NCBI GenBank assembly: GCA_964586355.1
Contig: CAZPGO010000002.1
Location: 1 to 8,457 of the forward strand
Source of the DNA: an uncultured archaeon
Lineage (GTDB): Archaea > Iainarchaeota > Iainarchaeia > Iainarchaeales > CSSED10-239
Length of the DNA stretch: 8,457 nt
Direction of reading: 5' to 3'
This document shows positions 1-8,457 of the stretch, in pieces (position 1 is the first letter of the stretch; the number at the start of each line of letters is the position of its first letter). The notes beneath the pieces were generated by a model. The model worked only from the letters and a program-made list of their open reading frames with translations, was not told the DNA's origin and made no database searches. A program made the position numbers and the translations under genes.

Positions 1-558
1 ATTTGCACTTTTTGTATCTGCTGATAACCCTAGTTCAATAAATTTTATTTGTTTATAGTTTTTTCCATATGCTTCTTTTATAGATCTGTTATTTGCATAT
101 ATTCCAAAGTATGGTGTGAAAGCGTGTGCTGGTCCAATCAAGACCTCGTATTTAACACAGATATCTAATAGTTTGTCTGGTCCAATAGAAAGTCTTGGTC
201 TTCCTCCTCCATATACATTCATATCAGAAGAATATTTTTCTATTTCTTTTTTAAATTTTTCAATAACTTCAAAGTTTTTAAAAAATATTAAATGATGTAC
301 TCTTCCTTTTGTTTCTACTTCTGTTGTTAATAAGAAATATGTTTTTTTTTCTTTATCTTCTTTATAATAATAACAATCATTTTCTTCTTTTAGGTTTTCT
401 TTTACATGAGCTAACCATTTTGGGTGTAATATATCTCCAGTACCAATAAGATCTAGTCCTTTTAATTTTGCTTCTTTTGCTAAAACAGGTATACTCATAT
501 TTTTAGATACTCCTGCTGCGTATGGTGAATGAATATGTAGATCTATATTATATTTCAT
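1..558 (-). CDS. PHP-domain phosphoesterase, endonuclease Q (EndoQ/TIGR00375)-like. N-terminal 186 codons only; the 3' end runs off the window.
   Basis: Hand translation of the minus strand from the ATG at 558-556 gives 186 codons with no stop: MKYNIDLHIHSPYAAGVSKNMSIPVLAKEAKLKGLDLIGTGDILHPKWL...GRVHHLIFF...GGGRPRLSIG...LIGPAHAFTPYFG...ELGLSADT. The blocks DLHIHS, GTGD..HP, HH, GPAH..TP and ELGLSAD match what I recall for PHP-fold EndoQ-type proteins. It is absent from the supplied ORF track because the window edge truncates it. Confidence 0.8.
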   Translation of the reverse strand, partial: MKYNIDLHIHSPYAAGVSKNMSIPVLAKEAKLKGLDLIGTGDILHPKWLAHVKENLKEENDCYYYKEDKEKKTYFLLTTEVETKGRVHHLIFFKNFEVIEKFKKEIEKYSSDMNVYGGGRPRLSIGPDKLLDICVKYEVLIGPAHAFTPYFGIYANNRSIKEAYGKNYKQIKFIELGLSADTKSAN

Positions 559-671
559 ATTTTTTACTCTCTTTATTATTATTTGTGTTTGCCTGTTCTT
601 TTATTTTTTTCTATTTTATTTAATGATTTGTTTTTATTTGTTTTGATTCTATTTTAAATAGATGATTTTTT
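559..671. promoter_or_regulatory. Divergent intergenic region between the PHP gene (-) and the 427-aa gene (+), containing several TATA-like boxes
   Basis: The 113-nt AT-rich spacer lies between two divergently oriented starts. TATA-like strings include ttttatttaat (about 614-624) and attttaaata (651-660). The direct repeat ctatttt occurs at 611-617 and 649-655. Part of this spacer is duplicated at 2294-2364. I cannot assign transcription start sites from sequence alone. Confidence 0.35.
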
Positions 672-1955
672 ATGAAACAAATATATGTTTTTTTATTATT
701 GGGCTTTTTTTTACTTTCTTTTTTTAATTACCTTTCTGCAGAAATGTTTTATGGGGATGGAACTTATGATGTAAAGGCAGGAGATTTTTTAATTGCAGAT
801 AATGGTTGGAAATTGGAAGTTGATGTTTTGCTTTCTGCACACAAGGGTGACGAAATAATTTTTAGTCTTTATGATTCTGAAGGTTTTATTTCTATAGCCA
901 ATGCAAGTAGTTTAAATATTAATGAAGGTTCAAAAAAAATTGGACCCGCACCAAATTTAAAAATAAATTTAGAGTTGTTAGATGTTTTTGGTGAATCAAC
1001 ACCAACAGATTCTCCAATTGCTTTTGTTAGAGAATTTGCAAAAGTTAAAATAACGTCTATAGATGAGGATTTGCCTTCAACTGTAAGTGATAGTTCTGAG
1101 GATGAATTAGAAATAATTAATAAAGATTTAACTTTTAAAAATGCTACCAAATTTAATTTAGCTCTTGGAGAAAAACATATTTTAAAAAATGGTTATAAAT
1201 TGGGTTTAATTGATTTTGATATGCGTTTTAATTCGCCAATGTTCTCTTTATGGAATGAAAATGATGACCTAATTTTAGATTCTTTTTTTATTACAAAAAA
1301 ACCTCAAAATTCTTTTGGAACTTTGGTTTTTTTAGATGATTATGATTCAGACTCTGTTTCTTTAAAAAAAATTGAGGGTTCTCATTTTGTTTTTGGTTCT
1401 GGTTGGAATTTATTTTCTATATTTTTAGATGATGGTTCTGGTTTTGGAACTGTTTTAGAGACCACTTGTAATAATGGTGTTTTGTGGATTTGGAATCCTG
1501 AGTTAGATGATTATGAAAATATTGGTTTTCTGGAAGTTGGTCAAAAAATTCCTTCAAATAAAGGTGTTTGGATTAAAGTAACTGTAGAGAATAATTCAAA
1601 TGCTGATTTTGCCTGTGAGACTATTATATCTGGATCAAAATCTGTTACAACTAAAGGTCAAGAACTAAAAGCCGGTTGGAATTTAATTGGCGCCCCAATA
1701 ACAGCAAATGGAAAAAGTATTGTTACAGTAAATCAAACAACAAGGCAATTATTAAATATCAATGATATTTTAGGAGATTGTAAACTAGAAAAAGGCCCTT
1801 GGCAATTTGTGAGTTCACGATATTCTTCTTTTTTACTTCTAGATAATTTAACAGATCTTGGGGTTTTTTCTAAACCAATAGATAATAATTTAAGATTAAA
1901 CTATGGTTATTTTGTTTTTGTTTCTAAAAATTGTGTGTTAGGTGATGTAAATTGA
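672..1955 (+). CDS. Secreted protein of unknown family with 2+2 internal module duplications
   Basis: The ORF is 427 aa, with ATG at 672 and TGA at 1953-1955. The N-terminus looks like a signal peptide (MKQIYVFLLLGFFLLSFFNYLSA) and there is no other hydrophobic helix. There are two N-terminal modules (NGWKLEVDV..IIFSLYDSEG and NGYKLGLIDFD..MFSLWNENDD). There are two C-terminal modules opening with GSGWNLFSIF and KAGWNLIGAPI and closing with KGVWIKV and YGYFVFV. I cannot name a family with confidence. Confidence 0.8.
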   Translation: MKQIYVFLLLGFFLLSFFNYLSAEMFYGDGTYDVKAGDFLIADNGWKLEVDVLLSAHKGDEIIFSLYDSEGFISIANASSLNINEGSKKIGPAPNLKINLELLDVFGESTPTDSPIAFVREFAKVKITSIDEDLPSTVSDSSEDELEIINKDLTFKNATKFNLALGEKHILKNGYKLGLIDFDMRFNSPMFSLWNENDDLILDSFFITKKPQNSFGTLVFLDDYDSDSVSLKKIEGSHFVFGSGWNLFSIFLDDGSGFGTVLETTCNNGVLWIWNPELDDYENIGFLEVGQKIPSNKGVWIKVTVENNSNADFACETIISGSKSVTTKGQELKAGWNLIGAPITANGKSIVTVNQTTRQLLNINDILGDCKLEKGPWQFVSSRYSSFLLLDNLTDLGVFSKPIDNNLRLNYGYFVFVSKNCVLGDVN

Positions 1956-2173
1956 AAAAAATGTTTTTTATATTTATTATAATTATTTTATTTTTAACTG
2001 TTTCTTTAGTTGTCTATAATTTATTTATATCTAGTGAAGCAGATTCTCAGGATTTTATTAGTAATTCAGATTATAATAATTCAGACATTACAGATAATCA
2101 AAATCAATATGGTTATTCTGTTTTAGAAAATTCAGAAGTAGATTTTGAAAAGCCACCTCGTCCACCAGAATAA
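1952..2173 (+). CDS. Small single-pass membrane protein with an acidic, Asn-rich tail
   Basis: The TTG at 1952 overlaps the upstream TGA (aTTGA). An ATG at 1961 is an equally plausible start. The protein has one N-terminal TM helix (FFIFIIIILFLTVSLVVYNLFI) followed by SEADSQDF..NQNQYGYSVLENSEVDFEKPPRPPE. A near-identical 5'-truncated copy lies at 3221-3412. Confidence 0.6.
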   Translation: MKKMFFIFIIIILFLTVSLVVYNLFISSEADSQDFISNSDYNNSDITDNQNQYGYSVLENSEVDFEKPPRPPE

Positions 2174-2293
2174 AAGTTTGTTTTATTTTAAATTATTCTA
2201 TTTTATAAATTTTGTTAAAATAAATTAATTCCTATTTTTAGATGCGGCTGCTGCGTATGGTGGCTGAATGTGTAGATCTATATTGTATTTCAT
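1982..2293. repeat. Long direct repeat, copy 1 (3' two-thirds of the 73-aa gene, its downstream spacer, and a PHP-gene 5' fragment)
   Basis: Hand alignment to 3221-3538 shows 12 substitutions and one 6-nt indel over about 312 nt, roughly 96 percent identity. Confidence 0.9.
2233..2293 (-). pseudogene. Remnant of the PHP/EndoQ-like gene: first ~20 codons only
   Basis: The segment aligns to 498-558 at a constant offset of 1735. It reads MKYNIDLHIQPPYAAAASKN then RN-stop, compared with MKYNIDLHIHSPYAAGVSKN in the intact gene. Homology to the gene body stops at tatttttagat. Confidence 0.85.
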
Positions 2294-2406
2294 ATTTTTT
2301 ACTCTCTTTATTATTATTTGTGTTTGCCTGTTCTTTTATAATTTTCTATTTTTTTAAATAGATATCTAAATGATATCTTTAAAACAATTGTGGATCTATA
2401 TTATTT
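2294..2406 (+). promoter_or_regulatory. Duplicated promoter block upstream of the toxin-antitoxin pair, with a TATA-like box and a tandem operator-like repeat
   Basis: Positions 2294-2339 are identical to 559-604, and 2346-2364 match 649-663. A TATA-like tttttaaata lies at 2351-2360. It is immediately followed by the tandem repeat AAATAGATATCT (2356-2367) and AAATGATATCT (2368-2378). This places two GATATCT cores 11 nt apart, and tagatatcta (2359-2368) is a 10-bp palindrome. The ATG of the RHH gene is at 2407. Confidence 0.45.
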
Positions 2407-2700
2407 ATGATTAAAAATACATCTAGAGATGAATTTATTATAAGGTTGTCTGGAAAACACAAACAATGTCTTGATGAATTATTAACACAGGGTTATTTTT
2501 CAAATAAGAGTGAAATAATAAGGCATGGAATTTTAGAGGTGAGTAAAAAATATTTGCCAAAAAATGATTCTTCTCAAGAATTGTTATTAGTTGGAAATGC
2601 AATTAAAAGAGAACTAGATCAATTAAATAAATCTGGTGCTGAGTTAATTTCAGAGAAAGATTTTTTAAAAGATTTTCCTCATCTTAAAAAAGTAAAATAG
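2407..2700 (+). CDS. Ribbon-helix-helix (CopG/Arc-like) antitoxin candidate
   Basis: The ORF is 97 aa. The N-terminal segment EFIIRLSGKHKQCLDELLTQGYFSNKSEIIRHGILEV fits the RHH strand-helix-helix pattern, including the SEIIR motif. The C-terminal half is charged and of low complexity. The stop is 2 nt before the toxin start. Confidence 0.65.
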   Translation: MIKNTSRDEFIIRLSGKHKQCLDELLTQGYFSNKSEIIRHGILEVSKKYLPKNDSSQELLLVGNAIKRELDQLNKSGAELISEKDFLKDFPHLKKVK

Positions 2701-2702
2701 GT

Positions 2703-2963
2703 GTGGCGTTGTATCTTATTTTTTTAACTCCTGAATTTAAGAAGGATTTTAGTAAATTGGATAAGCAATTTCAAATACACATTTATAAAAAAATCAAAAA
2801 AATATCTTCTTTGCAAACAAACAAACATTTGAAACACAGTCTCCCATATTTTGTTGAAAAATCTGCGGATGGTTCTAGGTTAGTGTATATTTTAATTGAT
2901 AATAAATTAACCATAATCCGATTTTTTAAAACACATAAAGAATATACTAAATGGTTAAAATGA
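2703..2963 (+). CDS. RelE/ParE-superfamily toxin candidate
   Basis: The ORF is 86 aa with a GTG start at 2703. The layout fits small RelE/ParE-like toxins: YLIFLTPEFKKDFSKLDKQFQIHIYKKIKKI....HLKHSL....EKSADGSRLVYILIDNKLTIIRFFKTHKEY. That is an N-terminal strand, a helix with an FKKD..KLDK motif, a central RLVY strand, and a C-terminal basic/aromatic HKEY. It is paired with the upstream RHH gene. Confidence 0.55.
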   Translation: MALYLIFLTPEFKKDFSKLDKQFQIHIYKKIKKISSLQTNKHLKHSLPYFVEKSADGSRLVYILIDNKLTIIRFFKTHKEYTKWLK

Positions 2964-3049
2964 ATGCTTTTAAATATTTTAAAAAACAAAAAAATAAGTT
3001 GTGCTGCTTGTAATGGATATTGTGTAATTAAAAAAAACTAAACTGGTTT
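2964..3049 (+). pseudogene. 5' remnant of the radical SAM gene
   Basis: The ATG at 2964 abuts the toxin TGA (tgaATG). Positions 3000-3049 align to 6031-6080 with 4 mismatches. The remnant keeps the CxxCxxxC frame (SCAACNGYCVIKKN) and then hits a TAA at 3039-3041 where the intact gene has CAA (Gln). Homology ends at 3049 and is fused to sequence matching 8216 onward. Confidence 0.8.
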
Positions 3050-3050
3050 C

Positions 3051-3227
3051 AAAAAACTTAAGGATTAACATTGTTCTAAGCCCTGCAATTCCAAATATTG
3101 CTGATACTACTATTGTTGCCCAAATTGGTGGTTTAATAACTAATAAACAATTACATACTAAAAACCCAACAACTCTAATAATACTATTTAGCAAAATATT
3201 TTTTAAAAAAAAAGATTGTAATTATTG
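3051..3227 (-). pseudogene. N-terminally truncated copy of the BofA-like membrane protein gene (supplied ORF 2979-3194)
   Basis: The segment aligns to 8217-8392 with 14 substitutions and an A9/A8 indel, about 92 percent identity. It encodes ..LKNILLNSIIRVVGFLVCNCLLVIKPPIWATIVVSAIFGIAGLRTMLILKFF. The native stop is lost, so the frame reads on through the radical SAM remnant. There is no ATG and the upstream TM helix of the native gene is missing. Confidence 0.7.
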
Positions 3228-3412
3228 TATTTTTAACTGTTTCTTTAGTTATCTATAATTTATTTATATCTAGTGAAGCAGATTCTCAGTGTTTTATTAG
3301 TAATTCAGATTATAATAATTCAGACATTACAGATAATCAAAATCAATATGGTGATTCAGTTTTAGAAAATTCAGAAGTAGATTTTGAAAAGCCACCTCGC
3401 CCACCAGAATAA
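3221..3412 (+). pseudogene. 5'-truncated copy of the 73-aa membrane protein gene
   Basis: The frame is preserved to the same KPPRPPE-TAA end (stop at 3410-3412). The frame opens only after a TAA at 3179-3181, with no ATG, GTG or TTG start before the homologous region. There are 7 nt differences from 1982-2173, giving V>I, D>C and Y>D changes. Confidence 0.7.
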
Positions 3413-3477
3413 AAGTTTGTTTTATTTTAAATTAAAATAATTCTATTTTATAAATTTTGTTAAAATAAATTAATTCC

Positions 3478-3538
3478 TATTTTTAGATACGGCTGCTGCG
3501 TATGGTGACTGAATGTGTAGATCTATGTGGTATTTTAT
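3478..3538 (-). pseudogene. Second remnant of the PHP/EndoQ-like gene 5' end, with the start codon lost
   Basis: The segment aligns to 498-558 (offset 2980) and to 2233-2293 (offset 1245). The position of the start codon reads tat (ATA) instead of cat (ATG) at 3536-3538. It shares the ggctgctgcg and ctgaatgtg variants with the 2233 copy rather than with the intact gene. Confidence 0.8.
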
Positions 3539-3690
3539 AAATAGTTATTTGATAAATATTTATTTAAGTTGTCATAAGCAAAACAACCTCTTTTTAAATA
3601 TATCTATCTAATTAAGAAAACATTATGCTTTATATAGATTTTACAACATAACTTATTTATATTAGTCTTATTGTTTTTTTTTTGCTCGGT

Positions 3691-3718
3691 AATATTTTAA
3701 ATTTAGAGGTGTGTTATA
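3691..3718 (+). promoter_or_regulatory. TATA-like box and Shine-Dalgarno-like site upstream of the 753-aa gene
   Basis: The string aatattttaaat lies at 3691-3702. GAGGTG lies at 3706-3711, 7 nt before the ATG at 3719, and is complementary to the usual 16S 3' end. Confidence 0.45.
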
Positions 3719-5980
3719 ATGAATTTAAAAATTATTTTTAAAAGTTTTAATTTGCTATTAATCTTTATTTTTTTATTTTCAACGGTTTTTGCTGAGATTA
3801 ATGTTGTTGACTTTAGTAGTGATGCTAAGGAGCCTGGTTTTTTGGGTATTGGTGATTCTATTTCTTTTTATATTAAATTAAATGAACCCATAGAAAACTT
3901 AGAAATTAGTCCAAAAGAATATAATTCTAAATTAATAGAATGGAAATCAAATAAAGATCATTCAGTTTATTCTGCAAAATATGTTGTAGAAGAAGGAGAT
4001 CCTTCTCATAAAGATCCTTTGCAATTAGGTGTTTTAGTTTTAAGATCGGCTGATGATGAATTAAAATTAGAATCAAAAAAAATTGTTTTTAAGTCAATAG
4101 ATTCTATAAGACCAAAAATTATTGATGTTATTTTTTCAAATATATCTTATTTAAATAAAGAAAATTATCCTCTTACTTTTTTGCTTGATAGAAAAGAGGT
4201 TGATGGTATTTTAACGTATTCTTTTTTCTCGAAAAATCAAGACATTACAAGAACTATTGAATTAAATGAGCTTTATTCTCGTGTAGAGGGCGTTATTGAT
4301 TTACAAAAAGAGGTTCCTTTAACAATATATGAAAATCTTTCTTTTTTTGAAGATGGTCTTGTTTTTTTAAAATTAAAAATAACTGATCATGCAAATAATT
4401 CTGTTTATTTTGAAGCAGACATTATTAAAGACGATATTTTACCTGAAATAGTAAAAATTGATGCTGATTTTATTACAAATACTAATTTTGAATCTTATTC
4501 TTTAGATTTAAAAATAAACAAACCATGTAAATTAGCAAAATTTATTTTTGCCGACACTCAAAACACTTTAAGTTTTGAAAGAAATTTTGATGAGGTTAAA
4601 AATCTAGATCATTCTTTTTCTGATTTTGATCTCTCTAAATTAAAGGATGGTGTTGTTACTTTAAATGTTGTTTTATTTGATTTGTCAAATAACGAAAGTA
4701 AACTTTATGAATTTGATTTATATAAAGACACTGTGATTCCAAAATTAAATTTAGATCAAGAAAATTTAATTTTACATAATAAAAAAGAAATTACTTTTAC
4801 TGGTTTAGTTATTGACAATTTGCATGAAAATATAAAAGTTAATTATTCTAAAACTCATGAGTCTGGTGATGTTCAAGATCTTGATGTTTTATATGATTGT
4901 TCTGTATTTTATAGTCCATGTTGTTCAGGTAACGGCTATAATTATGTTACTTGTGAAATTGATGGTTTAGTTGAAGGAAATAATAAAATATTAATTAGGG
5001 CTATTGATAGAGTAGGTAATGAAGACAAAAAAGAAATTAGTCTGTCTATTAGTACAGAACCTGTTGATTTAAAATTTCATTATGGAAATAGGTTTGTTGT
5101 AAATACCGCTCCTTCTGTGATAAAGGGAGATGCGATTTTAAATCCAATTGCTAATGTTAAAACTTTTGTTGCTGTTTTAAGGCTTGTGGATTCAACACAA
5201 CCTCTTAAATATAATAAATATGCTCCAATAATAGATGGTGATAATTTTCTTATTGATTTAGAAAAACCAATTAGTGGTAGTAATCTTTTTTTGCCTTTAG
5301 TAGAGGGTGAGTATCTTTTAACTATTTTTTTAAAAGATGATTATGGTAATTCTATTTCTAAAGCACAAGTCATTATAATTGATAGTACAGCACCACAATT
5401 AGAAATAAATAATCTGTCTACAAGTAATAGACAACCAACAATTACTGGTAAGGTTGTTGATAAAACAAAAACAGATGTTTTGATAACTATTAATTCAAAC
5501 GACTATGTTGCTACTGTTGTTGATGGTTCATGGAGTGCACAAATTACAAATACTTTGCCTCTTGGTATTCAAAATGTAAAAGTTGTTGCAAAGGATGAGG
5601 CAAATAACCGATCCGAAATTGAAAGCACGGTGTCTATTAATTCTACTGGTGGTGGTTCTAGATTTACTGCTTTGCCAGCACAAGAAGCACTTCCAGAGCA
5701 AGAGCAAGAAACTGTTTCAGAGAGTGTTGTTGATGAAACTCCAGTGATTTTAGATGATTCGCCGAATAATTTGCCAGCTCCTTCTCAAAGCAATACATTA
5801 CAAGAACCGATTGAAAATCTAGAATTTATTGAAGATCAAGTTGAACAACCACAAACAACAGGTGGACTAACTGGTTTTGTTGGTTTTGCTAATAAACCAC
5901 AAGGCATTGTAACAATAGTTCTTAGTATTTTTTCTGTTGTTGGTGTTTTGGGCTATTTGTTTGTTTTTAAGAAAAGATAA
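3719..5980 (+). CDS. Large cell-surface protein with tandem bacterial-Ig-like modules and a C-terminal membrane anchor
   Basis: The ORF is 753 aa with a signal-peptide-like N-terminus (FNLLLIFIFLFSTVFA). There are at least five module ends with the D-x-x-(G/A/S)-N motif followed by a D..x.P boundary: ITDHANNS..KDDILPEI, LFDLSNNES..KDTVIPKL, AIDRVGNED, LKDDYGNS..IDSTAPQL and AKDEANNRS. The module TITGKVVDKTKTDVLITINSNDYVATVVDGSWSAQI is classic for Ig-like adhesin repeats. There is a Cys cluster (CSVFYSPCCSGNGYNYVTC). The protein ends with an acidic Pro/Gln/Glu linker, a TM helix and a KKR tail (GIVTIVLSIFSVVGVLGYLFVFKKR). Confidence 0.85.
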   Translation: MNLKIIFKSFNLLLIFIFLFSTVFAEINVVDFSSDAKEPGFLGIGDSISFYIKLNEPIENLEISPKEYNSKLIEWKSNKDHSVYSAKYVVEEGDPSHKDPLQLGVLVLRSADDELKLESKKIVFKSIDSIRPKIIDVIFSNISYLNKENYPLTFLLDRKEVDGILTYSFFSKNQDITRTIELNELYSRVEGVIDLQKEVPLTIYENLSFFEDGLVFLKLKITDHANNSVYFEADIIKDDILPEIVKIDADFITNTNFESYSLDLKINKPCKLAKFIFADTQNTLSFERNFDEVKNLDHSFSDFDLSKLKDGVVTLNVVLFDLSNNESKLYEFDLYKDTVIPKLNLDQENLILHNKKEITFTGLVIDNLHENIKVNYSKTHESGDVQDLDVLYDCSVFYSPCCSGNGYNYVTCEIDGLVEGNNKILIRAIDRVGNEDKKEISLSISTEPVDLKFHYGNRFVVNTAPSVIKGDAILNPIANVKTFVAVLRLVDSTQPLKYNKYAPIIDGDNFLIDLEKPISGSNLFLPLVEGEYLLTIFLKDDYGNSISKAQVIIIDSTAPQLEINNLSTSNRQPTITGKVVDKTKTDVLITINSNDYVATVVDGSWSAQITNTLPLGIQNVKVVAKDEANNRSEIESTVSINSTGGGSRFTALPAQEALPEQEQETVSESVVDETPVILDDSPNNLPAPSQSNTLQEPIENLEFIEDQVEQPQTTGGLTGFVGFANKPQGIVTIVLSIFSVVGVLGYLFVFKKR

Positions 5981-5985
5981 TTTTT

Positions 5986-6849
5986 ATGTCTTTTACTTTT
6001 TTTTCTATTTTGGGTGTTGCTGAAATTAAATGTACTGCTTGTAATAGATATTGTGTAATTAAAGAAAACCAAACTGGTTTTTGTAAGGTTAGAAAAAACA
6101 TTAATGGTTCGTTAGTTTCTTTAGTTGATAACAAGCCCATTGCTATTGCCATAGATCCAATTGAAAAGAAACCACTTTATCATTTTTTACCTAAAACAAA
6201 AACTCTTTCTTTTGGTACTGTTGGTTGTAATTTTGATTGTGCTTTTTGTCAAAATTTTTCAATATCTAATCCAAAAGAATTCAATTTGGATTTGTTACCT
6301 ATGGTGTCTGAACAGCAGATTATTGATCTCGCACTAAAAAATAATTTGCCCTCTATTTCTTACACCTATAATGAGCCAACAGTTTTTTCTGAGTTTGCAC
6401 TAAGGGTTATGAAGTTAGCTAAGAAAAATAATCTAAAAAATATCTGGGTAAGTAACGGATACATGTCTAAAGAGGTTTTAAAAGAGCTAACCAAGTATCT
6501 TGATGCTATTAACATAGATCTAAAAGGTGATCAAGCTTTTTATGATAACTTGATTCCTGGCATTAATGTTGATATAATTAAAGAGAACATAAAATATTTG
6601 CATAAAAAAGGTGTCCACGTAGAAATAACTAATCTATTACTTGAAGGTTATAATACTAAGAAAGAACAGATTCAGGAAATAATTGATTTTGTTTCTTCTA
6701 TATCTTCTGATATTCCTCTTCATTTTTCTAGATCTTTTCCTTGTTATAGATTAAAGGATATTACTCCTACAAAAATAGAGTCTCTTAAACTAGCAAAAGA
6801 TCTTGCAATTTCTAGTAGATTAAAGAATATTTATTTAGGAAACATTTGA
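5986..6849 (+). CDS. Radical SAM enzyme, AmmeMemoRadiSam-system / PflA-activase-like
   Basis: The ORF is 287 aa. It has an N-terminal auxiliary Cys motif (CTACNRYCVIKENQTGFCKVRKN), then DPIEKKPLYHF, then the CX3CX2C core (GCNFDCAFCQN). The C-terminal end is KNIYLGNI. This order of blocks is what I recall for TIGR04337-type enzymes. The start is 5 nt after the stop of the 753-aa gene. Confidence 0.8.
   Translation: MSFTFFSILGVAEIKCTACNRYCVIKENQTGFCKVRKNINGSLVSLVDNKPIAIAIDPIEKKPLYHFLPKTKTLSFGTVGCNFDCAFCQNFSISNPKEFNLDLLPMVSEQQIIDLALKNNLPSISYTYNEPTVFSEFALRVMKLAKKNNLKNIWVSNGYMSKEVLKELTKYLDAINIDLKGDQAFYDNLIPGINVDIIKENIKYLHKKGVHVEITNLLLEGYNTKKEQIQEIIDFVSSISSDIPLHFSRSFPCYRLKDITPTKIESLKLAKDLAISSRLKNIYLGNI
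6783..6849 (+). repeat. Direct repeat, left copy (the functional 3' end of the radical SAM gene)
   Basis: Positions 6791-6849 match 8141-8199 at a constant offset of 1350 with 4 mismatches. Two of those convert TGA to TAG. The match extends about 7 nt further left with a 1-nt indel. Confidence 0.9.
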
Positions 6850-6853
6850 TTTT

Positions 6854-8044
6854 TTATTCGCAGATTTTTTTAAGATTGGTAGGATCGTAAATTGTAATAT
6901 CTTCTATTTTTTGTTTGTTATTTTTTTCTTTTACAAATAAAAATTTTGTTTTTGCATCAATATTTAGATTTTCTTTAACAGTAGTTATTTTTACTGCATC
7001 TATTTTTTTCCATTTGATAGATCCAACAATTTCTATTTTTTTAAATTTTTTTAAAACCACATCAATTTCTTGATCTGGTTTATTATAGATTACTTTTGTC
7101 AAACCTTTTTTTTCTATTAATAAATCAGAAATAAAATCTTCTATATAAAAGGACACTTTATTTTGCCAGGCTTCTATTATTTCTTTTTCACTTACATTCT
7201 CGCCATATTTTGTATTTAAGTAAAAGAAAAAATCTATTGGTGTTGATTTTATTTTATATTTGTATCTTTTTTGATTATATATTTGTGTTTTTTCTAAAAC
7301 CCCTATATTTACTAATGTATTAATATATGCTGATATTGCTCCAGGCGTTTCTTTTGAAATTATTTTTTGGTTATATAAATTTGTAGTAATTTCTCCAATA
7401 GTTTGATGTCCTGTAGATACATTTCTAATAATGGCGTCATATGTTTCTGTTAATATTTTATCTTCATCTTCAAAGATCTCTCCAAATAATGCCACTGACC
7501 AATATTTTGCAAATTTATAGTATTTTAATAAAAAATCAGTAAACTTTTCTTTTTGATCATATAGTTCTATCAATGTTGGCTCTCTAAAAAATATTGCTTG
7601 TTCCATAAAATTGTTTTTATTTTTTAAATTAGTAATTATTTCACAAGGGGTTATTAATCTAAATTCTATGGGATAAACTAATCCTAAAATAGGGGATTTA
7701 CTTGCTAATATTTTTTTTGCAATATGTAAAGAGGATGTTATTATAATTAAATTATTTAGTCTTTGACTATGTAAAAAATCAGTAAAATCATCTCCTAGTC
7801 TATGAAATTCATCAACCACTATAACTTTGTCTTTGTTTTCTAATATATATCTTTTTAGTTCTTCATATTGCCAATTTTCATTAGTTTCTACGTTTTTTAT
7901 TGACTTGTCTCTATATATGAAAAAAAACTTATTATATTTTATAAAGTTTTGAACATAAAATGATTTTCCTGTTTTTCGTCTACCATAAACTAGTTTTATT
8001 TTATTTGTTTTAAATTCTTTTAAATAGTTTCTAGTTATAATCAT
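6854..8044 (-). CDS. AAA-type ATPase of the archaeal ATPase (Arch_ATPase) family with wHTH and a DUF234-like C-terminal domain
   Basis: The ORF is 396 aa. Walker A is VYGRRKTGKS (residues 19-28) and Walker B is VIVVDEFH (residues 74-81). A wHTH-like segment reads TIGEITTNL...ISAYINTLVNIGVLEK. The C-terminal QEIDVV...IVGSIKWKK resembles the DUF234 signature. The gene converges on the radical SAM gene with only 4 nt between the two stops. Confidence 0.8.
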   Translation of the reverse strand: MIITRNYLKEFKTNKIKLVYGRRKTGKSFYVQNFIKYNKFFFIYRDKSIKNVETNENWQYEELKRYILENKDKVIVVDEFHRLGDDFTDFLHSQRLNNLIIITSSLHIAKKILASKSPILGLVYPIEFRLITPCEIITNLKNKNNFMEQAIFFREPTLIELYDQKEKFTDFLLKYYKFAKYWSVALFGEIFEDEDKILTETYDAIIRNVSTGHQTIGEITTNLYNQKIISKETPGAISAYINTLVNIGVLEKTQIYNQKRYKYKIKSTPIDFFFYLNTKYGENVSEKEIIEAWQNKVSFYIEDFISDLLIEKKGLTKVIYNKPDQEIDVVLKKFKKIEIVGSIKWKKIDAVKITTVKENLNIDAKTKFLFVKEKNNKQKIEDITIYDPTNLKKICE

Positions 8045-8133: not shown

Positions 8134-8199
8134 TCTTAACTAGCAAAAGATCTTGCAATTTCTAGTGGATTAAAGAATGTTTATTTAGGAAACATTTAG
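8134..8199 (+). repeat. Direct repeat, right copy (orphan 3' end of the radical SAM gene)
   Basis: It would encode LAKDLAISSGLKNVYLGNI-TAG in the original frame, compared with LAKDLAISSRLKNIYLGNI-TGA in the intact gene. No upstream coding sequence is attached to it. Confidence 0.9.
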
Positions 8200-8204
8200 A
8201 AAAA

Positions 8205-8457
8205 TTAAAAAATCCCAAAAAACTTAAGGATTAACATTGTTCCAAGCCCTGCAATTCCAAATATTGCTGATACAATTATTGTTGCCCAAATAGGTAGTTT
8301 AATGCCTAGTAAAAAATTACATACTAAAAACCCAACAACTCCAACAATACTATTTAGTAAAATATTTTTTAAAAAAAAGATTATGATTATTGCTAAAATA
8401 ATAAAAATAACTCCAAATATTAAAACCTTAGGGTTATTGATAAGACCAGTAGCAGTA
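8205..8457 (-). CDS. Small multi-pass membrane protein, BofA-like (pro-sigmaK processing inhibitor family fold). C-terminal 83 codons only; the 5' end lies beyond the window.
   Basis: Hand translation of the minus strand gives TATGLINNPKVLIFGVIFIILAIIIIFFLKNILLNSIVGVVGFLVCNFLLGIKLPIWATIIVSAIFGIAGLGTMLILKFFGIF, with the stop at 8207-8205. The pattern N-S-I-x-G-x-x-G......I..N/P.W....V.A..G.PG resembles BofA-family proteins as I recall them. It is not in the ORF track because of edge truncation. Confidence 0.6.
   Translation of the reverse strand, partial: TATGLINNPKVLIFGVIFIILAIIIIFFLKNILLNSIVGVVGFLVCNFLLGIKLPIWATIIVSAIFGIAGLGTMLILKFFGIF

Follow-up and report, generated by a model that had tools for sequence, protein, structure and literature searches.

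Decayed fragments of neighbouring genes beside a toxin-antitoxin pair: probable debris of duplication and cassette turnover in an uncultured small-genome archaeon

Positions 2964-3540 of the window, i.e. the 8,457-nt stretch of archaeal DNA analysed here, are probably non-functional debris from a flexible genomic island in which sequences were duplicated, cassettes replaced and DNA deleted. The patchwork consists of the decayed right flank of a toxin-antitoxin unit and a duplicated boundary segment. It is an ordinary type of genomic scar and no new molecular system. Similarity, lesions and nearest-relative comparisons all agree with segmental duplicates that became pseudogene relics. The disabling lesions are truncation, a stop codon, a frameshift and lost start codons; with the apparent loss of catalytic histidines, these mark the fragments as decayed, as far as sequence can tell. 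The closest named relative of the genome is an Iainarchaeum MAG.

The pieces were matched with their partners by self-BLAST and pairwise alignments of the window, and chance similarity was gauged from the local alignment scores of 200 dinucleotide-preserving shuffles per piece. The four pieces score 44, 146, 210 and 45, and the shuffle maxima are 27, 30, 33 and 19 (z = 13.8, 48.4, 72.0 and 23.1). The original prediction of a patchwork of neighbour-gene fragments is therefore borne out: all four pieces match the partners claimed for them (z = 14-72), well beyond what the AT-rich background would give. Exact repeats reach 61 nt at most. The number of joins was set too high, as there are three novel breakpoints (3049/3050, about 3215-3227 and 3538/3539); the join between spacer and PHP fragment came along inside a copied 325-nt block. 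Coordinates are collected in Table 1.

Table 1. Genes, repeats and gene remnants of the window (rSAM, radical SAM; DR, direct repeat; L numbers denote assemblies and related loci)
Feature	Positions	Strand	Remarks
PHP-domain gene, intact	1-558	-	5' 186 codons in window; start codon 556-558
DR1 copy A	475-624		PHP 5' end and about 62 nt of PHP-proximal intergenic DNA; 150 nt
Cassette A, 427-aa secreted protein gene	672-1955	+	
Cassette A, 73-aa membrane protein gene	1952/1961-2173	+	
DR2 source copy	1976-2294		73-aa gene 3' two-thirds, spacer, PHP 5' pseudogene fragment B
DR1 copy B	2210-2359		PHP 5' pseudogene 2233-2293 (HIH>HIQ) and proximal intergenic DNA
Palindrome AGATATC-TAAAT-GATATCT	2360-2378		Upstream of antitoxin gene; conserved in L034
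Cassette B, antitoxin-like gene	2407-2700	+	97 aa
Cassette B, RelE/ParE-like toxin gene	2703-2963	+	86 aa
rSAM 5' remnant	2964-3049	+	About 28 codons; in-frame TAA at 3039-3041
BofA-like 3' remnant	3050-3227	-	Codons ~45-101, without last 4 codons
DR2 copy	3215-3539		73-aa gene 3' remnant, spacer, PHP fragment C
73-aa gene 3' remnant	3215-3413		No start codon
Spacer in DR2 copy	3414-3476		
PHP 5' pseudogene fragment C	3477-3538		ATG>ATA, HIH>HIQ
Intergenic region upstream of 753-aa gene	3539-3718		3539-3622 without counterpart
Cassette C, 753-aa surface protein gene	3719-5980	+	Ig-like domains, C-terminal membrane anchor; Big_13, Glucodextran_B
AmmeMemoRadiSam-type rSAM gene, intact	5986-6849	+	TIGR04337, 241.3 bits (cut-off 220)
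DR3 left copy	6783-6847		rSAM gene 3' end
AAA_14-type ATPase gene	6854-8044	-	In variable rSAM-BofA interval
DR3 right copy	8134-8197		Duplicated rSAM 3' end; 95-97%, stop codon included
Native BofA-like membrane protein gene	8207-8457	-	3' 83 codons in window; 105 aa in L002

The rSAM remnant had been taken for the first ~25 codons of the native gene. This holds for 2992-3049, which is 88% identical to 6023-6080 over 58 nt and includes the in-frame CAA>TAA change, but not for the first 28 nt (2964-2991). These show only 46% identity to the native rSAM start and agree instead with the rSAM start that relatives have next to the toxin gene. In the intact loci of relatives, as in the remnant, the stop codon of the toxin gene and the ATG of rSAM overlap; the remnant appears to retain the ancestral toxin-stop/rSAM-ATG junction. 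The native gene, which passes the NCBIfam TIGR04337 cut-off, begins with ~9 codons (MSFTFFSIL) of the '753-cassette' type. Thus, the remnant is no copy of the present rSAM start, since the latter differs, is linked to the 753-aa cassette and is common to the window and L046 as MSF(S/T)FFSIL.

The BofA-like remnant (3050-3227) is 92-93% identical to 8216-8392. It has lost both ends, carries a 1-nt insertion that shifts the frame, and displays radical substitutions (G>R twice, L>P and F>C). The piece does derive from the 3' part of the BofA-like gene, as had been proposed, but the downstream spacer also proposed is absent, because 3050-3227 lies wholly inside the open reading frame and ends 4 codons before its stop. 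The remnant has 9 private changes, the frameshift and radical substitutions included, and the native copy has 3 that are clearly private, mostly silent; this asymmetry reads as the pattern of a pseudogene. The name BofA-like is a label of convenience, as the protein does not reach the gathering score of Pfam BofA, PF07441 (15.5 bits vs a cut-off of 26.1; E = 0.019, model positions 3-75 of 75). A BofA haplotype signal tying the remnant to relatives of the toxin-antitoxin type was looked for and not found.

In their homologous parts, remnant and native rSAM are 88% identical (72-76% with relatives), and remnant and native BofA-like sequences 92% (80-85% with relatives). Remnant and native copies are thus each other's closest relatives, which points to a duplication within the lineage, at the limited resolution that such short sequences afford. 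Between the two pieces, about 2.1 kb may have been deleted, as originally predicted, or only about 0.8 kb if the ATPase gene was a later arrival. ATPase homologues (87%) follow rSAM in L037/L038 and are absent in L043/L044, as also in L045. The ATPase gene is bracketed by a 65-nt repeat, DR3, that the original prediction had missed, and the right copy of DR3 sits just ahead of the BofA-like gene.

The remaining two pieces had been described as separately joined. Both matches stand: 3215-3477 is 96.9% identical to 1976-2232 with one 6-nt indel, and 3478-3538 is 87% identical (53/61) to 498-558. The pieces are, however, one contiguous 325-nt copy (3215-3539) of 1976-2294 (94%). The PHP 5' fragment (2232-2293) already follows the spacer of the 73-aa gene in the source copy, and there are therefore three PHP 5' copies, at 498-558, 2233-2293 and 3478-3538. 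The functional one is 498-558, part of a gene of the TIGR00375 family (E = 3.4e-23) that encodes 421 aa in L002, with PF27218 (MJ0043_C). Fragments B and C encode Ala, as in L033/L034, vs Gly in the resident gene. Homology of fragment C ends at the start codon, and the conserved proximal intergenic DNA is absent; 3538/3539 is therefore a true breakpoint. Further downstream, 3623-3718 is weakly collinear with the L046 intergenic region.

DR1 copy A forms the left direct repeat around the 427+73-aa module. The DR1 alignment extends over 475-686 and 2210-2422, with copy A also aligning with L034 and copy B including a 54-nt exact match to 551-604; the PHP-proximal intergenic stretch has a conserved counterpart in L046. 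The 427-aa and 73-aa genes form a conserved two-gene module that recurs elsewhere, in unrelated contexts: in L040 and L041, genes for homologues of the 427-aa protein have 72-76-aa genes behind them, with EKPPRPPE/EKPPMPPE at the end. Two other relationships were considered and rejected. The 73-aa gene shows no similarity to 'down249', the gene downstream of the BofA-like gene, an origin from which the BofA|73-aa join would have followed by simple deletion. The 427-aa and 753-aa surface proteins are not homologous on comparison.

The conserved frame in the clade is PHP(-), a slot, rSAM(+), a small slot and BofA-like(-). The PHP-rSAM slot is empty in L016 and contains three paralogues in L013, genes for 732+327 aa in L014, 516+ aa in L033, 940 aa in L045 and 760 aa in L046, and the toxin-antitoxin pair in L034/L043. 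The rSAM-BofA slot is empty or holds the toxin-antitoxin pair, an ATPase gene or a 278-aa gene. The same flanks enclose different contents in relatives, as in a flexible genomic island, and the window has three alternative cassettes in tandem between these flanks (427+73 aa, toxin-antitoxin and 753 aa). Homologues of the 753-aa protein are found at the slot in L046 (56%) and L014 (43%); the L046 gene lies between PHP and rSAM and encodes a 760-aa surface protein, with a 5-nt gap to rSAM as in the window. The toxin-antitoxin unit is present in simple, intact loci in L034, L038, L043 and L044, in the order PHP(-)-IG-AT-Tox-rSAM in L034 and AT-Tox-rSAM-BofA-like in L043 and L044 (IG, intergenic DNA; AT, antitoxin; Tox, toxin). 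The proposal that the pair takes the place of the surface gene in an older duplicate of the PHP...rSAM...BofA locus is accordingly upheld, as relatives carry that locus intact. With the PHP protein as query, a metagenome scan, impeded by peptide patterns of low complexity, yielded 3 loci only, of which L033 and L034 were decisive.

The term hotspot is apt, in that nearly all related lineages differ from one another in PHP-rSAM content, with variation in the rSAM-BofA interval as well. The hotspot is not demonstrably active, as had been claimed: all assemblies of the population share one structure, and the copies are 3-12% diverged. Exact-protein look-ups with the 73-aa gene, the antitoxin and rSAM met one and the same arrangement throughout and revealed no deletion or intermediate variants in this population. 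The PHP gene contains a 30-SNP mosaic tract (100-290), which together with the cassette-linked flank ends points to recombination in the flanks.

The called genes in the 7.6 kb to the left and 0.9 kb to the right on record include neither a recombinase nor a mobile-element gene, and the window has no transposase domain and no terminal inverted repeats flanking the units. The flanking duplications measure 65-325 nt and not the few bases of an insertion sequence or transposon. Cassette boundaries are gene fragments and have no shared imperfect palindrome, which sets them apart from those of an integron. Rfam (E <= 1) and tRNA scans of the window returned no match; there is thus no RNA gene and no tRNA integration site in it. 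PADLOC gave no defence matches for the window, and the only PHROGs matches are a RelE-like toxin family (toxin) and an Ig-like region (753-aa protein), so that nothing points to a prophage. Viral contigs queried with the ATPase, the 427-aa protein and the PHP-fragment DNA pattern contained no relatives, and there is accordingly no sign of a virus-borne origin.

The toxin matches the PHROG RelE-like toxin family (E = 4.6e-6) and, below the cut-off of 23, Pfam ParE_toxin (17.9 bits, E = 0.0047); its L038 orthologue also has a weak ParE_toxin match. The antitoxin has a faint RHH_8 match (E = 0.14). The two genes are 2 nt apart and conserved as a pair in L034/L038/L043/L044, where the cassette B orthologues are 81-82% identical. 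The palindrome ahead of the antitoxin gene is probably the operator of the operon, and the duplicated PHP-proximal intergenic DNA appears still to serve as the upstream region of this operon. It may be speculated that the location of the pair between the 325-nt direct repeats disfavours their recombinational loss.

The most parsimonious history, with the order and number of events taken from the logic of the junctions, would run as follows. A resident locus PHP-IG-AT-Tox-rSAM-BofA, still present in L034/L043, would have received the 427+73-aa module between PHP and the toxin-antitoxin pair; the 150-nt DR1 direct duplication of the PHP 5' end and proximal intergenic DNA would then have created the spacer|PHP-fragment join. 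A segmental (tandem-type) duplication with one end within the 73-aa gene and the other within the BofA-like gene may have followed, giving a second rSAM-BofA copy, with the BofA|73-aa join at an 11/13-nt near-identical microhomology (...TAATTATT...). In the right-hand copy, an IG-753-rSAM-start cassette would have replaced IG-toxin-antitoxin-rSAM-start, with the right crossover within the first ~40 nt of rSAM; the closest donor identified has 56% aa identity. In the left-hand copy, the rSAM body would have been deleted, codon ~29 being bluntly joined to BofA codon -4. The ATPase gene would have entered the rSAM-BofA interval last, with the 65-nt duplication, and the leftover fragments would have decayed afterwards.

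The original prediction held that two identity classes imply at least two separate duplication events. The classes do differ (325-nt repeat 94-97%, rSAM/BofA remnants 88-92%), but the two-event reading is weakly supported (Fisher p = 0.007-0.04). Strain polymorphisms inside the repeats equal the state of the paralogous copy, which suggests gene conversion and undermines that reading. Gene conversion between the repeats is likely from this pattern, and neither the sequence of events nor the 'two duplication ages' can therefore be given with certainty. If the duplication, the cassette replacement and the rSAM deletion are of one age, the gap in identity between repeat and remnants requires gene conversion or an extra event.

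Other explanations must be weighed against decay after duplication. The data are metagenomic, with exact repeats of up to 61 nt, three units that look like alternative alleles of one slot and several short contigs that stop at repeat edges, and this raises the question of whether the segment is a chimeric join of co-existing strain variants. True repeats would be expected to interrupt short contigs in this way. Independent assemblies of different samples (L001/L009, L002, L003, L004 and L010) reproduce the window over its whole length, in collinear order and at 99.6-100%; L006 spans 2775-6912 and L012 spans 2310-3209. At least six independent assemblies, which differ in sample and pipeline, thus have the same 8.4-kb order, with contigs across every joint. 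In addition, the joints are truncated-gene fusions: mis-joined intact alleles cannot give BofA codon 45|73-aa codon 9 or rSAM codon 29|BofA, and the copies are diverged (3-26%), not identical. An assembly artefact is accordingly very unlikely, a judgement based on the independent assemblies. It is just as hard to credit that the patchwork is maintained as a functional element, such as a truncated BofA-like membrane peptide, a regulatory RNA, or a terminator or insulator between the toxin-antitoxin operon and the 753-aa gene. A 71-aa ORF survives (2979-3194, minus strand), and the segment is invariant across the population assemblies except at two sites in L006. Such invariance would be expected, given 99.6-100% identity overall. 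The 5' end of the ORF is frameshifted and its transmembrane helices carry radical substitutions; Rfam gives no match, and the segment is conserved in no relative. Somewhat less remote, yet improbable, is a single FoSTeS/MMBIR-type event of serial template switching that made 3049/3050, ~3220 and 3538/3539 at once, the 325-nt block being a templated insertion copied from 1.2 kb upstream. Three breakpoints inside 580 nt, filler copied from nearby in direct orientation, and microhomology at the BofA|73-aa join would fit such an event. The divergence of the pieces from their sources is unequal, however (Fisher p = 0.007-0.04), and the rSAM|BofA join has microhomology of <= 1 nt. The FoSTeS/MMBIR mechanism is moreover established mainly in eukaryotes and few bacteria.

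Perhaps no duplication in place occurred, and alleles of the slot from closely related strains were added beside the resident one. This is the least improbable of the alternatives, although still unlikely. Addition could be by Campbell-type integration of excised circles that had a short stretch of homology as an anchor (PHP 5'+IG, the 73-aa tail or the rSAM 3' end), the fragments being duplicated ends of the anchors, or by unequal crossover in a transient merodiploid. Direct repeats of neighbour-gene ends flank each insert (DR1 150 nt, DR2 325 nt, DR3 65 nt), exactly as single-crossover integration of a circle would yield. Loci of the toxin-antitoxin type and of the 753 type occur as distinct haplotypes, each with its own rSAM start, the PHP mosaic tract indicates that recombination with diverged alleles occurs here, and the Ala of PHP fragments B and C is that of L033/L034. 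What speaks against this account is that remnant and native rSAM/BofA are closest to each other among all sequences found, so that the donor must be very close (about 90% identity) and unsampled. Furthermore, the flanking DNA on record has no recombinase or mobile-element gene, and DNA uptake or circle transfer is not known for these archaea. A more general idea, held with little confidence, is that the repeat architecture reveals recurrent, recombinase-free cassette capture in DPANN archaea, as the 427+73-aa module, the toxin-antitoxin unit and the ATPase gene are all bracketed by direct neighbour-gene-end copies of 65-325 nt. Circles excised from tandem repeats would reintegrate by single crossover at short anchors flanking the rSAM gene, the toxin-antitoxin pair would be kept as an anti-deletion lock between repeats, and ongoing gene conversion would keep the anchors recombination-competent.

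The reading of duplication followed by decay can be set beside known systems. Replacement and additive flexible genomic islands of aquatic prokaryotes are described as variable surface-structure loci exchanged through homologous recombination in conserved flanks (PMC4033161). The window is similar in having PHP, rSAM and BofA-like flanks around lineage-specific cassettes, often surface proteins, and in cassette-linked flank ends and a PHP mosaic tract that point to flank recombination. It differs in that three cassettes are stacked with truncated flank copies between them, with no one-for-one replacement, and in that the host has a small, DPANN-type archaeal genome. For tandem paralogue clusters, the evolutionary unit is given as the 3' end of a gene, the intergenic region and the 5' end of the next gene (PMC2568036). 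DR1 and DR2 are such boundary-spanning units; unlike in such clusters, the joined genes have no relationship to each other, a dead fragment is one of the partners and there is no array of functional paralogues. As in segmental duplication with pseudogenisation, the closest copy is in the same genome, and there are disabling mutations and relaxed substitution in the remnants. Compared with ordinary segmental duplication nothing essential is different; only the density is unusual, at 3 breakpoints in 580 nt. This density stands out for a genome type that is usually called streamlined.

Toxin-antitoxin cassettes stabilise the sedentary chromosomal integrons of Vibrio. The arrays of such integrons are characterized as highly stabilised (10.1101/2023.11.17.567518). 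The window resembles them in that recombination between the 325-nt direct repeats would remove the RelE/ParE-like pair that they enclose. Unlike the Vibrio integrons, the window has no integron integrase, attI or attC, and a stabilising role here would be by analogy.

The segment may be viewed as a well-preserved 'fossil record' of the remodelling of a surface-protein slot in an uncultured small-genome archaeon, where the intact version of each stacked unit persists in relatives. It suggests that streamlined symbiont-type genomes, too, tolerate duplication debris over long periods, and that cassette turnover here proceeded by short homologous anchors and illegitimate joins, not by dedicated recombinases. 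For annotation, ORF 2979-3194 and the small ORFs that overlie the PHP fragments should be treated as relics.

Positions 2964–3540 had been predicted to hold four gene fragments joined end to end, and self-comparison of the window recovers all four matches. Their scores lie far above those of 200 dinucleotide-preserving shuffles per piece (z = 13.8 for the radical SAM (rSAM), 48.4 for the BofA-like, 72.0 for the 73-aa and 23.1 for the PHP piece), so that AT-richness does not explain the matches. The pieces themselves require some redrawing. The rSAM remnant matches the native gene at 2992–3049 (88% identity to 6023–6080, with an in-frame CAA>TAA change), but its first 28 nt have no match to the native start. 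The BofA-like piece, 3050–3227 (92–93% identity to 8216–8392, with a 1-nt insertion), is entirely coding and ends four codons before the stop codon; the downstream spacer attributed to it is not present. The 73-aa piece (3215–3477 versus 1976–2232, 96.9% plus a 6-nt indel) and the PHP piece (3478–3538 versus 498–558, 87%) are not separate fragments but one 325-nt copy, 3215–3539, of 1976–2294 (94%), in which the 73-aa gene and spacer are already followed by a PHP 5′ fragment (2233–2293). There are thus three copies of the PHP 5′ end, termed A (498–558, the functional gene), B (2233–2293) and C (3478–3538). Copy C lacks the PHP-proximal intergenic (IG) DNA kept in copies A and B and in the related loci L034 and L046, and therefore 3538/3539 is a genuine breakpoint. 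The join of the BofA-like and 73-aa pieces sits in an 11/13-nt near-identical stretch (...TAATTATT...), and microhomology at the rSAM/BofA-like join, read from the sequence, is at most 1 nt.

The window has a G+C content of 25.9%. A DPANN-type archaeon is indicated both by the genes upstream of the window on the source contig (EF-1alpha, S10, RtcB and PPDK) and by the nearest genomes, which are a Candidatus Iainarchaeum MAG and unclassified archaeon MAGs. The small membrane protein scores 15.5 bits with Pfam BofA, below the cut-off of 26.1, and 'BofA-like' is therefore kept as a label only.

Genes of the window and loci of the 427+73-aa module
Feature	Coordinates	Strand	Remarks
PHP-domain gene, 5′ 186 codons	start codon 556–558	minus	TIGR00375 family
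Secreted protein gene, 427 aa	672–1955		
Membrane protein gene, 73 aa	1952–2173		
Gene pair, 97-aa then 86-aa (AT-Tox)	2407–2963		antitoxin-like + toxin-like; second member RelE/ParE-like
Ig-like-domain surface protein gene, 753 aa	3719–5980		
rSAM gene, AmmeMemoRadiSam-type	5986–6849		TIGR04337, 241 bits versus cut-off 220
AAA_14 ATPase gene	6854–8044	minus	
Small membrane protein gene ('BofA-like'), 3′ part	8207–window end	minus	
427+73-aa module, window	672–2173		
427+73-aa module, locus L040	1933–3432		
427+73-aa module, locus L041	8001–9471		

The stretch 2210–3227 is a decayed copy of a locus of the type seen in the relative L043. It comprises, in order, a PHP 5′ fragment, an IG that is the same as that of L034, the AT-Tox pair in intact form, the start of rSAM and the end of BofA-like. 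The remnant rSAM start adjoins the toxin stop, as in the related loci L034, L037 and L038, and the flanking sequence AAATGGTTAAAATGAA is the same in all of these. About 28 rSAM codons and the last ∼57 BofA-like codons remain. Nine changes are private to the BofA-like remnant, among them a frameshift, two G>R substitutions, L>P and F>C, against three, mostly silent, that are clearly private to the native copy; this is what a pseudogene next to a gene under constraint looks like. A perfect palindrome, AGATATC-TAAAT-GATATCT, at 2360–2378, precedes the 97-aa gene by ∼30 nt; it has the counterpart AGATATC-TAAAA-GATATCT in L034 and is a likely operator for AT-Tox autoregulation. The region upstream of the toxin–antitoxin operon would still be duplicated IG DNA. 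Chromosomal integrons hold toxin–antitoxin cassettes, and by analogy addiction could aid retention of the AT-Tox unit, since recombination between the 325-nt direct repeats around it would delete the pair.

Relatives display a common frame, PHP, a variable slot, rSAM, a small slot and BofA-like, with lineage-specific contents. The decisive set consists of closer relatives (PHP amino acid identity 86–89%). Gene order is PHP(minus)-IG-AT-Tox-rSAM in L034, AT-Tox-rSAM-BofA-like with an empty rSAM-BofA-like interval in L043 and L044, (AT-Tox-)rSAM-ATPase in L037 and L038, and PHP-940-aa protein-rSAM-BofA-like in L045 and L036. In L033 the gene after PHP encodes an unrelated protein, at least 516 aa long, and L046 has PHP-IG-760-aa protein-rSAM-278-aa gene-BofA-like, where the 760-aa protein is 56% identical to the 753-aa protein. 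Scanning GTDB for the rSAM protein gave more distant siblings. In locus L016, no gene separates PHP from rSAM, and the two diverge. The slot of L013 holds three tandem paralogous secreted proteins, followed by rSAM overlapping BofA-like; that of L014 holds a 732-aa protein homologous to the 753-aa one and a 327-aa protein, with rSAM, a distant toxin–antitoxin pair and BofA-like downstream. These two surface protein genes of L014 are 96.6% identical at their 3′ ends (8690–8957 and 9701–9968), and the upstream regions of the three L013 paralogues are repeated (6040–8557). Duplication and conversion in the slot thus recur across the clade. An intact AT-Tox-rSAM-BofA-like locus is present in relatives. 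The original prediction is largely right on an older duplicate and a rearrangement hotspot; its number of joins, deletion size, dating and the word 'active' are less well supported.

The native rSAM starts MSFTFFSIL, and the same start is found in L046 directly after the 753-type gene, with a 5-nt gap in both. This unusual N-terminus (MSFTFFSILGVAE at 5986–6022; MSFSFFSILEDN at 6263–6300 of L046) is common to these two only; the remaining relatives begin with MFSKYF... or MNSLNYF.... It follows that the first ∼9 rSAM codons travel with the upstream cassette. From nt ∼38 on, the remnant is 88% identical to the native rSAM and 72–76% to all relatives, and for BofA-like the values are 92% and 80–85%. 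Remnant and native copies are thus mutual nearest relatives, and the second rSAM-BofA-like copy arose within the lineage; the present rSAM start would have come later, with the 753 cassette.

An insert plus a duplicated gene end is also the signature of the rSAM-BofA-like interval, which is thus a second variable slot. A 65-nt direct repeat (6783–6847 and 8134–8197, 95–97%), made up of the rSAM 3′ end together with its stop codon, brackets the ATPase gene. The interval contains an ATPase in L037/L038, a toxin–antitoxin pair in L014/L029, a 278-aa gene in L046, and nothing in L036 and L043–L045. As for the 427-aa gene, homologues of 36–49% identity occur elsewhere, and each one examined has a small partner of 72–76 aa downstream, ending EKPPRPPE or EKPPMPPE. 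Neighbours are type IV pilus-like genes (ATPase, platform) in L040 and T4SS_pilin genes in L041/L042, whose context is bacterial-looking (IF-2, RbfA, GyrA). Since the pairing is kept in differing contexts, the pair is a self-contained module, and its distribution suggests a transferable surface or pilus-associated one.

The proposed history would begin with a resident PHP-IG-AT-Tox-rSAM-BofA-like locus. The 427+73-aa module would then have been gained with a 150-nt duplication of the PHP 5′ end and proximal IG (475–624/2210–2359), followed by a segmental duplication of the interval between 73-aa codon 9 and BofA-like codon ∼45. In the right-hand copy, IG-753-rSAM-start may have taken the place of IG-AT-Tox-rSAM-start, the left-hand copy may have lost the rSAM body, and the ATPase gene would have been gained with the 65-nt duplication. 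We consider this general picture probable, and the exact order of events far less secure. Perhaps foreign haplotypes were instead added by single-crossover circle integration or unequal exchange between strains, which fits both the direct-repeat brackets and a mosaic tract in PHP; a one-step template-switching event is a further rival. The mosaic lies at 100–290 (minus strand), where the window differs from the same-population contigs L001 and L003 by 30 substitutions in 190 nt and is identical to them almost everywhere else. Here the other assemblies are closer to L033/L034 than the window is; the tract is recombination-imported and alters ∼9 residues of the PHP protein. A maintained function is another rival, but 2964–3540 has no RNA family match or tRNA in scans for these, no intact conserved ORF and no conservation in the relatives examined, and nothing suggests a function.

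An assembly chimera is also a rival, but such an artefact is very unlikely, as independent assemblies cross every joint. Gene order is the same in contigs of many samples by exact-protein look-ups. L001/L009, L002, L003, L004 and L010 are collinear with the whole window at the DNA level (99.6–99.9%), and L006 and L012 cover 2775–6912 and 2310–3209. The joints fuse truncated genes, an outcome not expected from intact alleles joined in error, and exact repeats reach 61 nt at longest. Some short contigs break at repeat edges (L005 at 3459, L011 at 1975, L012 at 3209), as expected of genuine repeats. L006 (sample 3300001533) lacks 7 nt, TTCAGTT, at 3961–3967, which splits the 753-aa gene into 87-aa and 653-aa ORFs; in this variant of the population the surface protein is inactivated or restarted. 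Beyond position 8457, L001/L009/L010 stop after ∼70 nt and L004 after ∼40 nt, inside the BofA-like gene (one of these contigs is 121 kb); only L002 and L003 continue, for ∼0.9 kb, a hint that a further repeat or a region variable between strains lies directly on the right.

Two identity classes had been taken to imply at least two duplication events. The 325-nt repeat is indeed less diverged than the rSAM/BofA-like remnants (8/257 versus 21/235 mismatches, Fisher p = 0.007), but identity classes alone do not prove two events, which are plausible. Polymorphisms in the repeats of L011 (2012, 2114, 2161, 2244, 2263, 2264, 2285) and L006 (3489, 3508) mostly carry the base of the paralogous copy in the window, which suggests gene conversion between the repeats, an ancestral state kept by one strain or very recent private mutations. 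The clock is thereby blurred and identity-based dating of the copies is unreliable.

The locus yielded neither a recombinase or attC-like site nor a transposase or terminal inverted repeat, and an integron and a transposon are accordingly ruled out. In its behaviour it resembles a flexible genomic island that is exchanged via conserved flanks (PMC4033161), and its boundary-spanning repeat units are similar to those of a tandem paralogue cluster (PMC2568036). The patchwork is best filed as a segmental duplication with pseudogene relics, a known kind of event, notable mainly for its scar density and for the small DPANN-type genome in which it occurs. Small plus-strand hydrophobic ORFs (522–623, 33 aa, and 2242–2361, 39 aa; ...YISYFLLSLLLFVFACSFI...) are also present in repeat copies A and B, antisense to the PHP start and over the proximal IG. 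They are probably artefacts of AT-rich sequence, but the two copies share an identical stretch of 54 nt beneath them.
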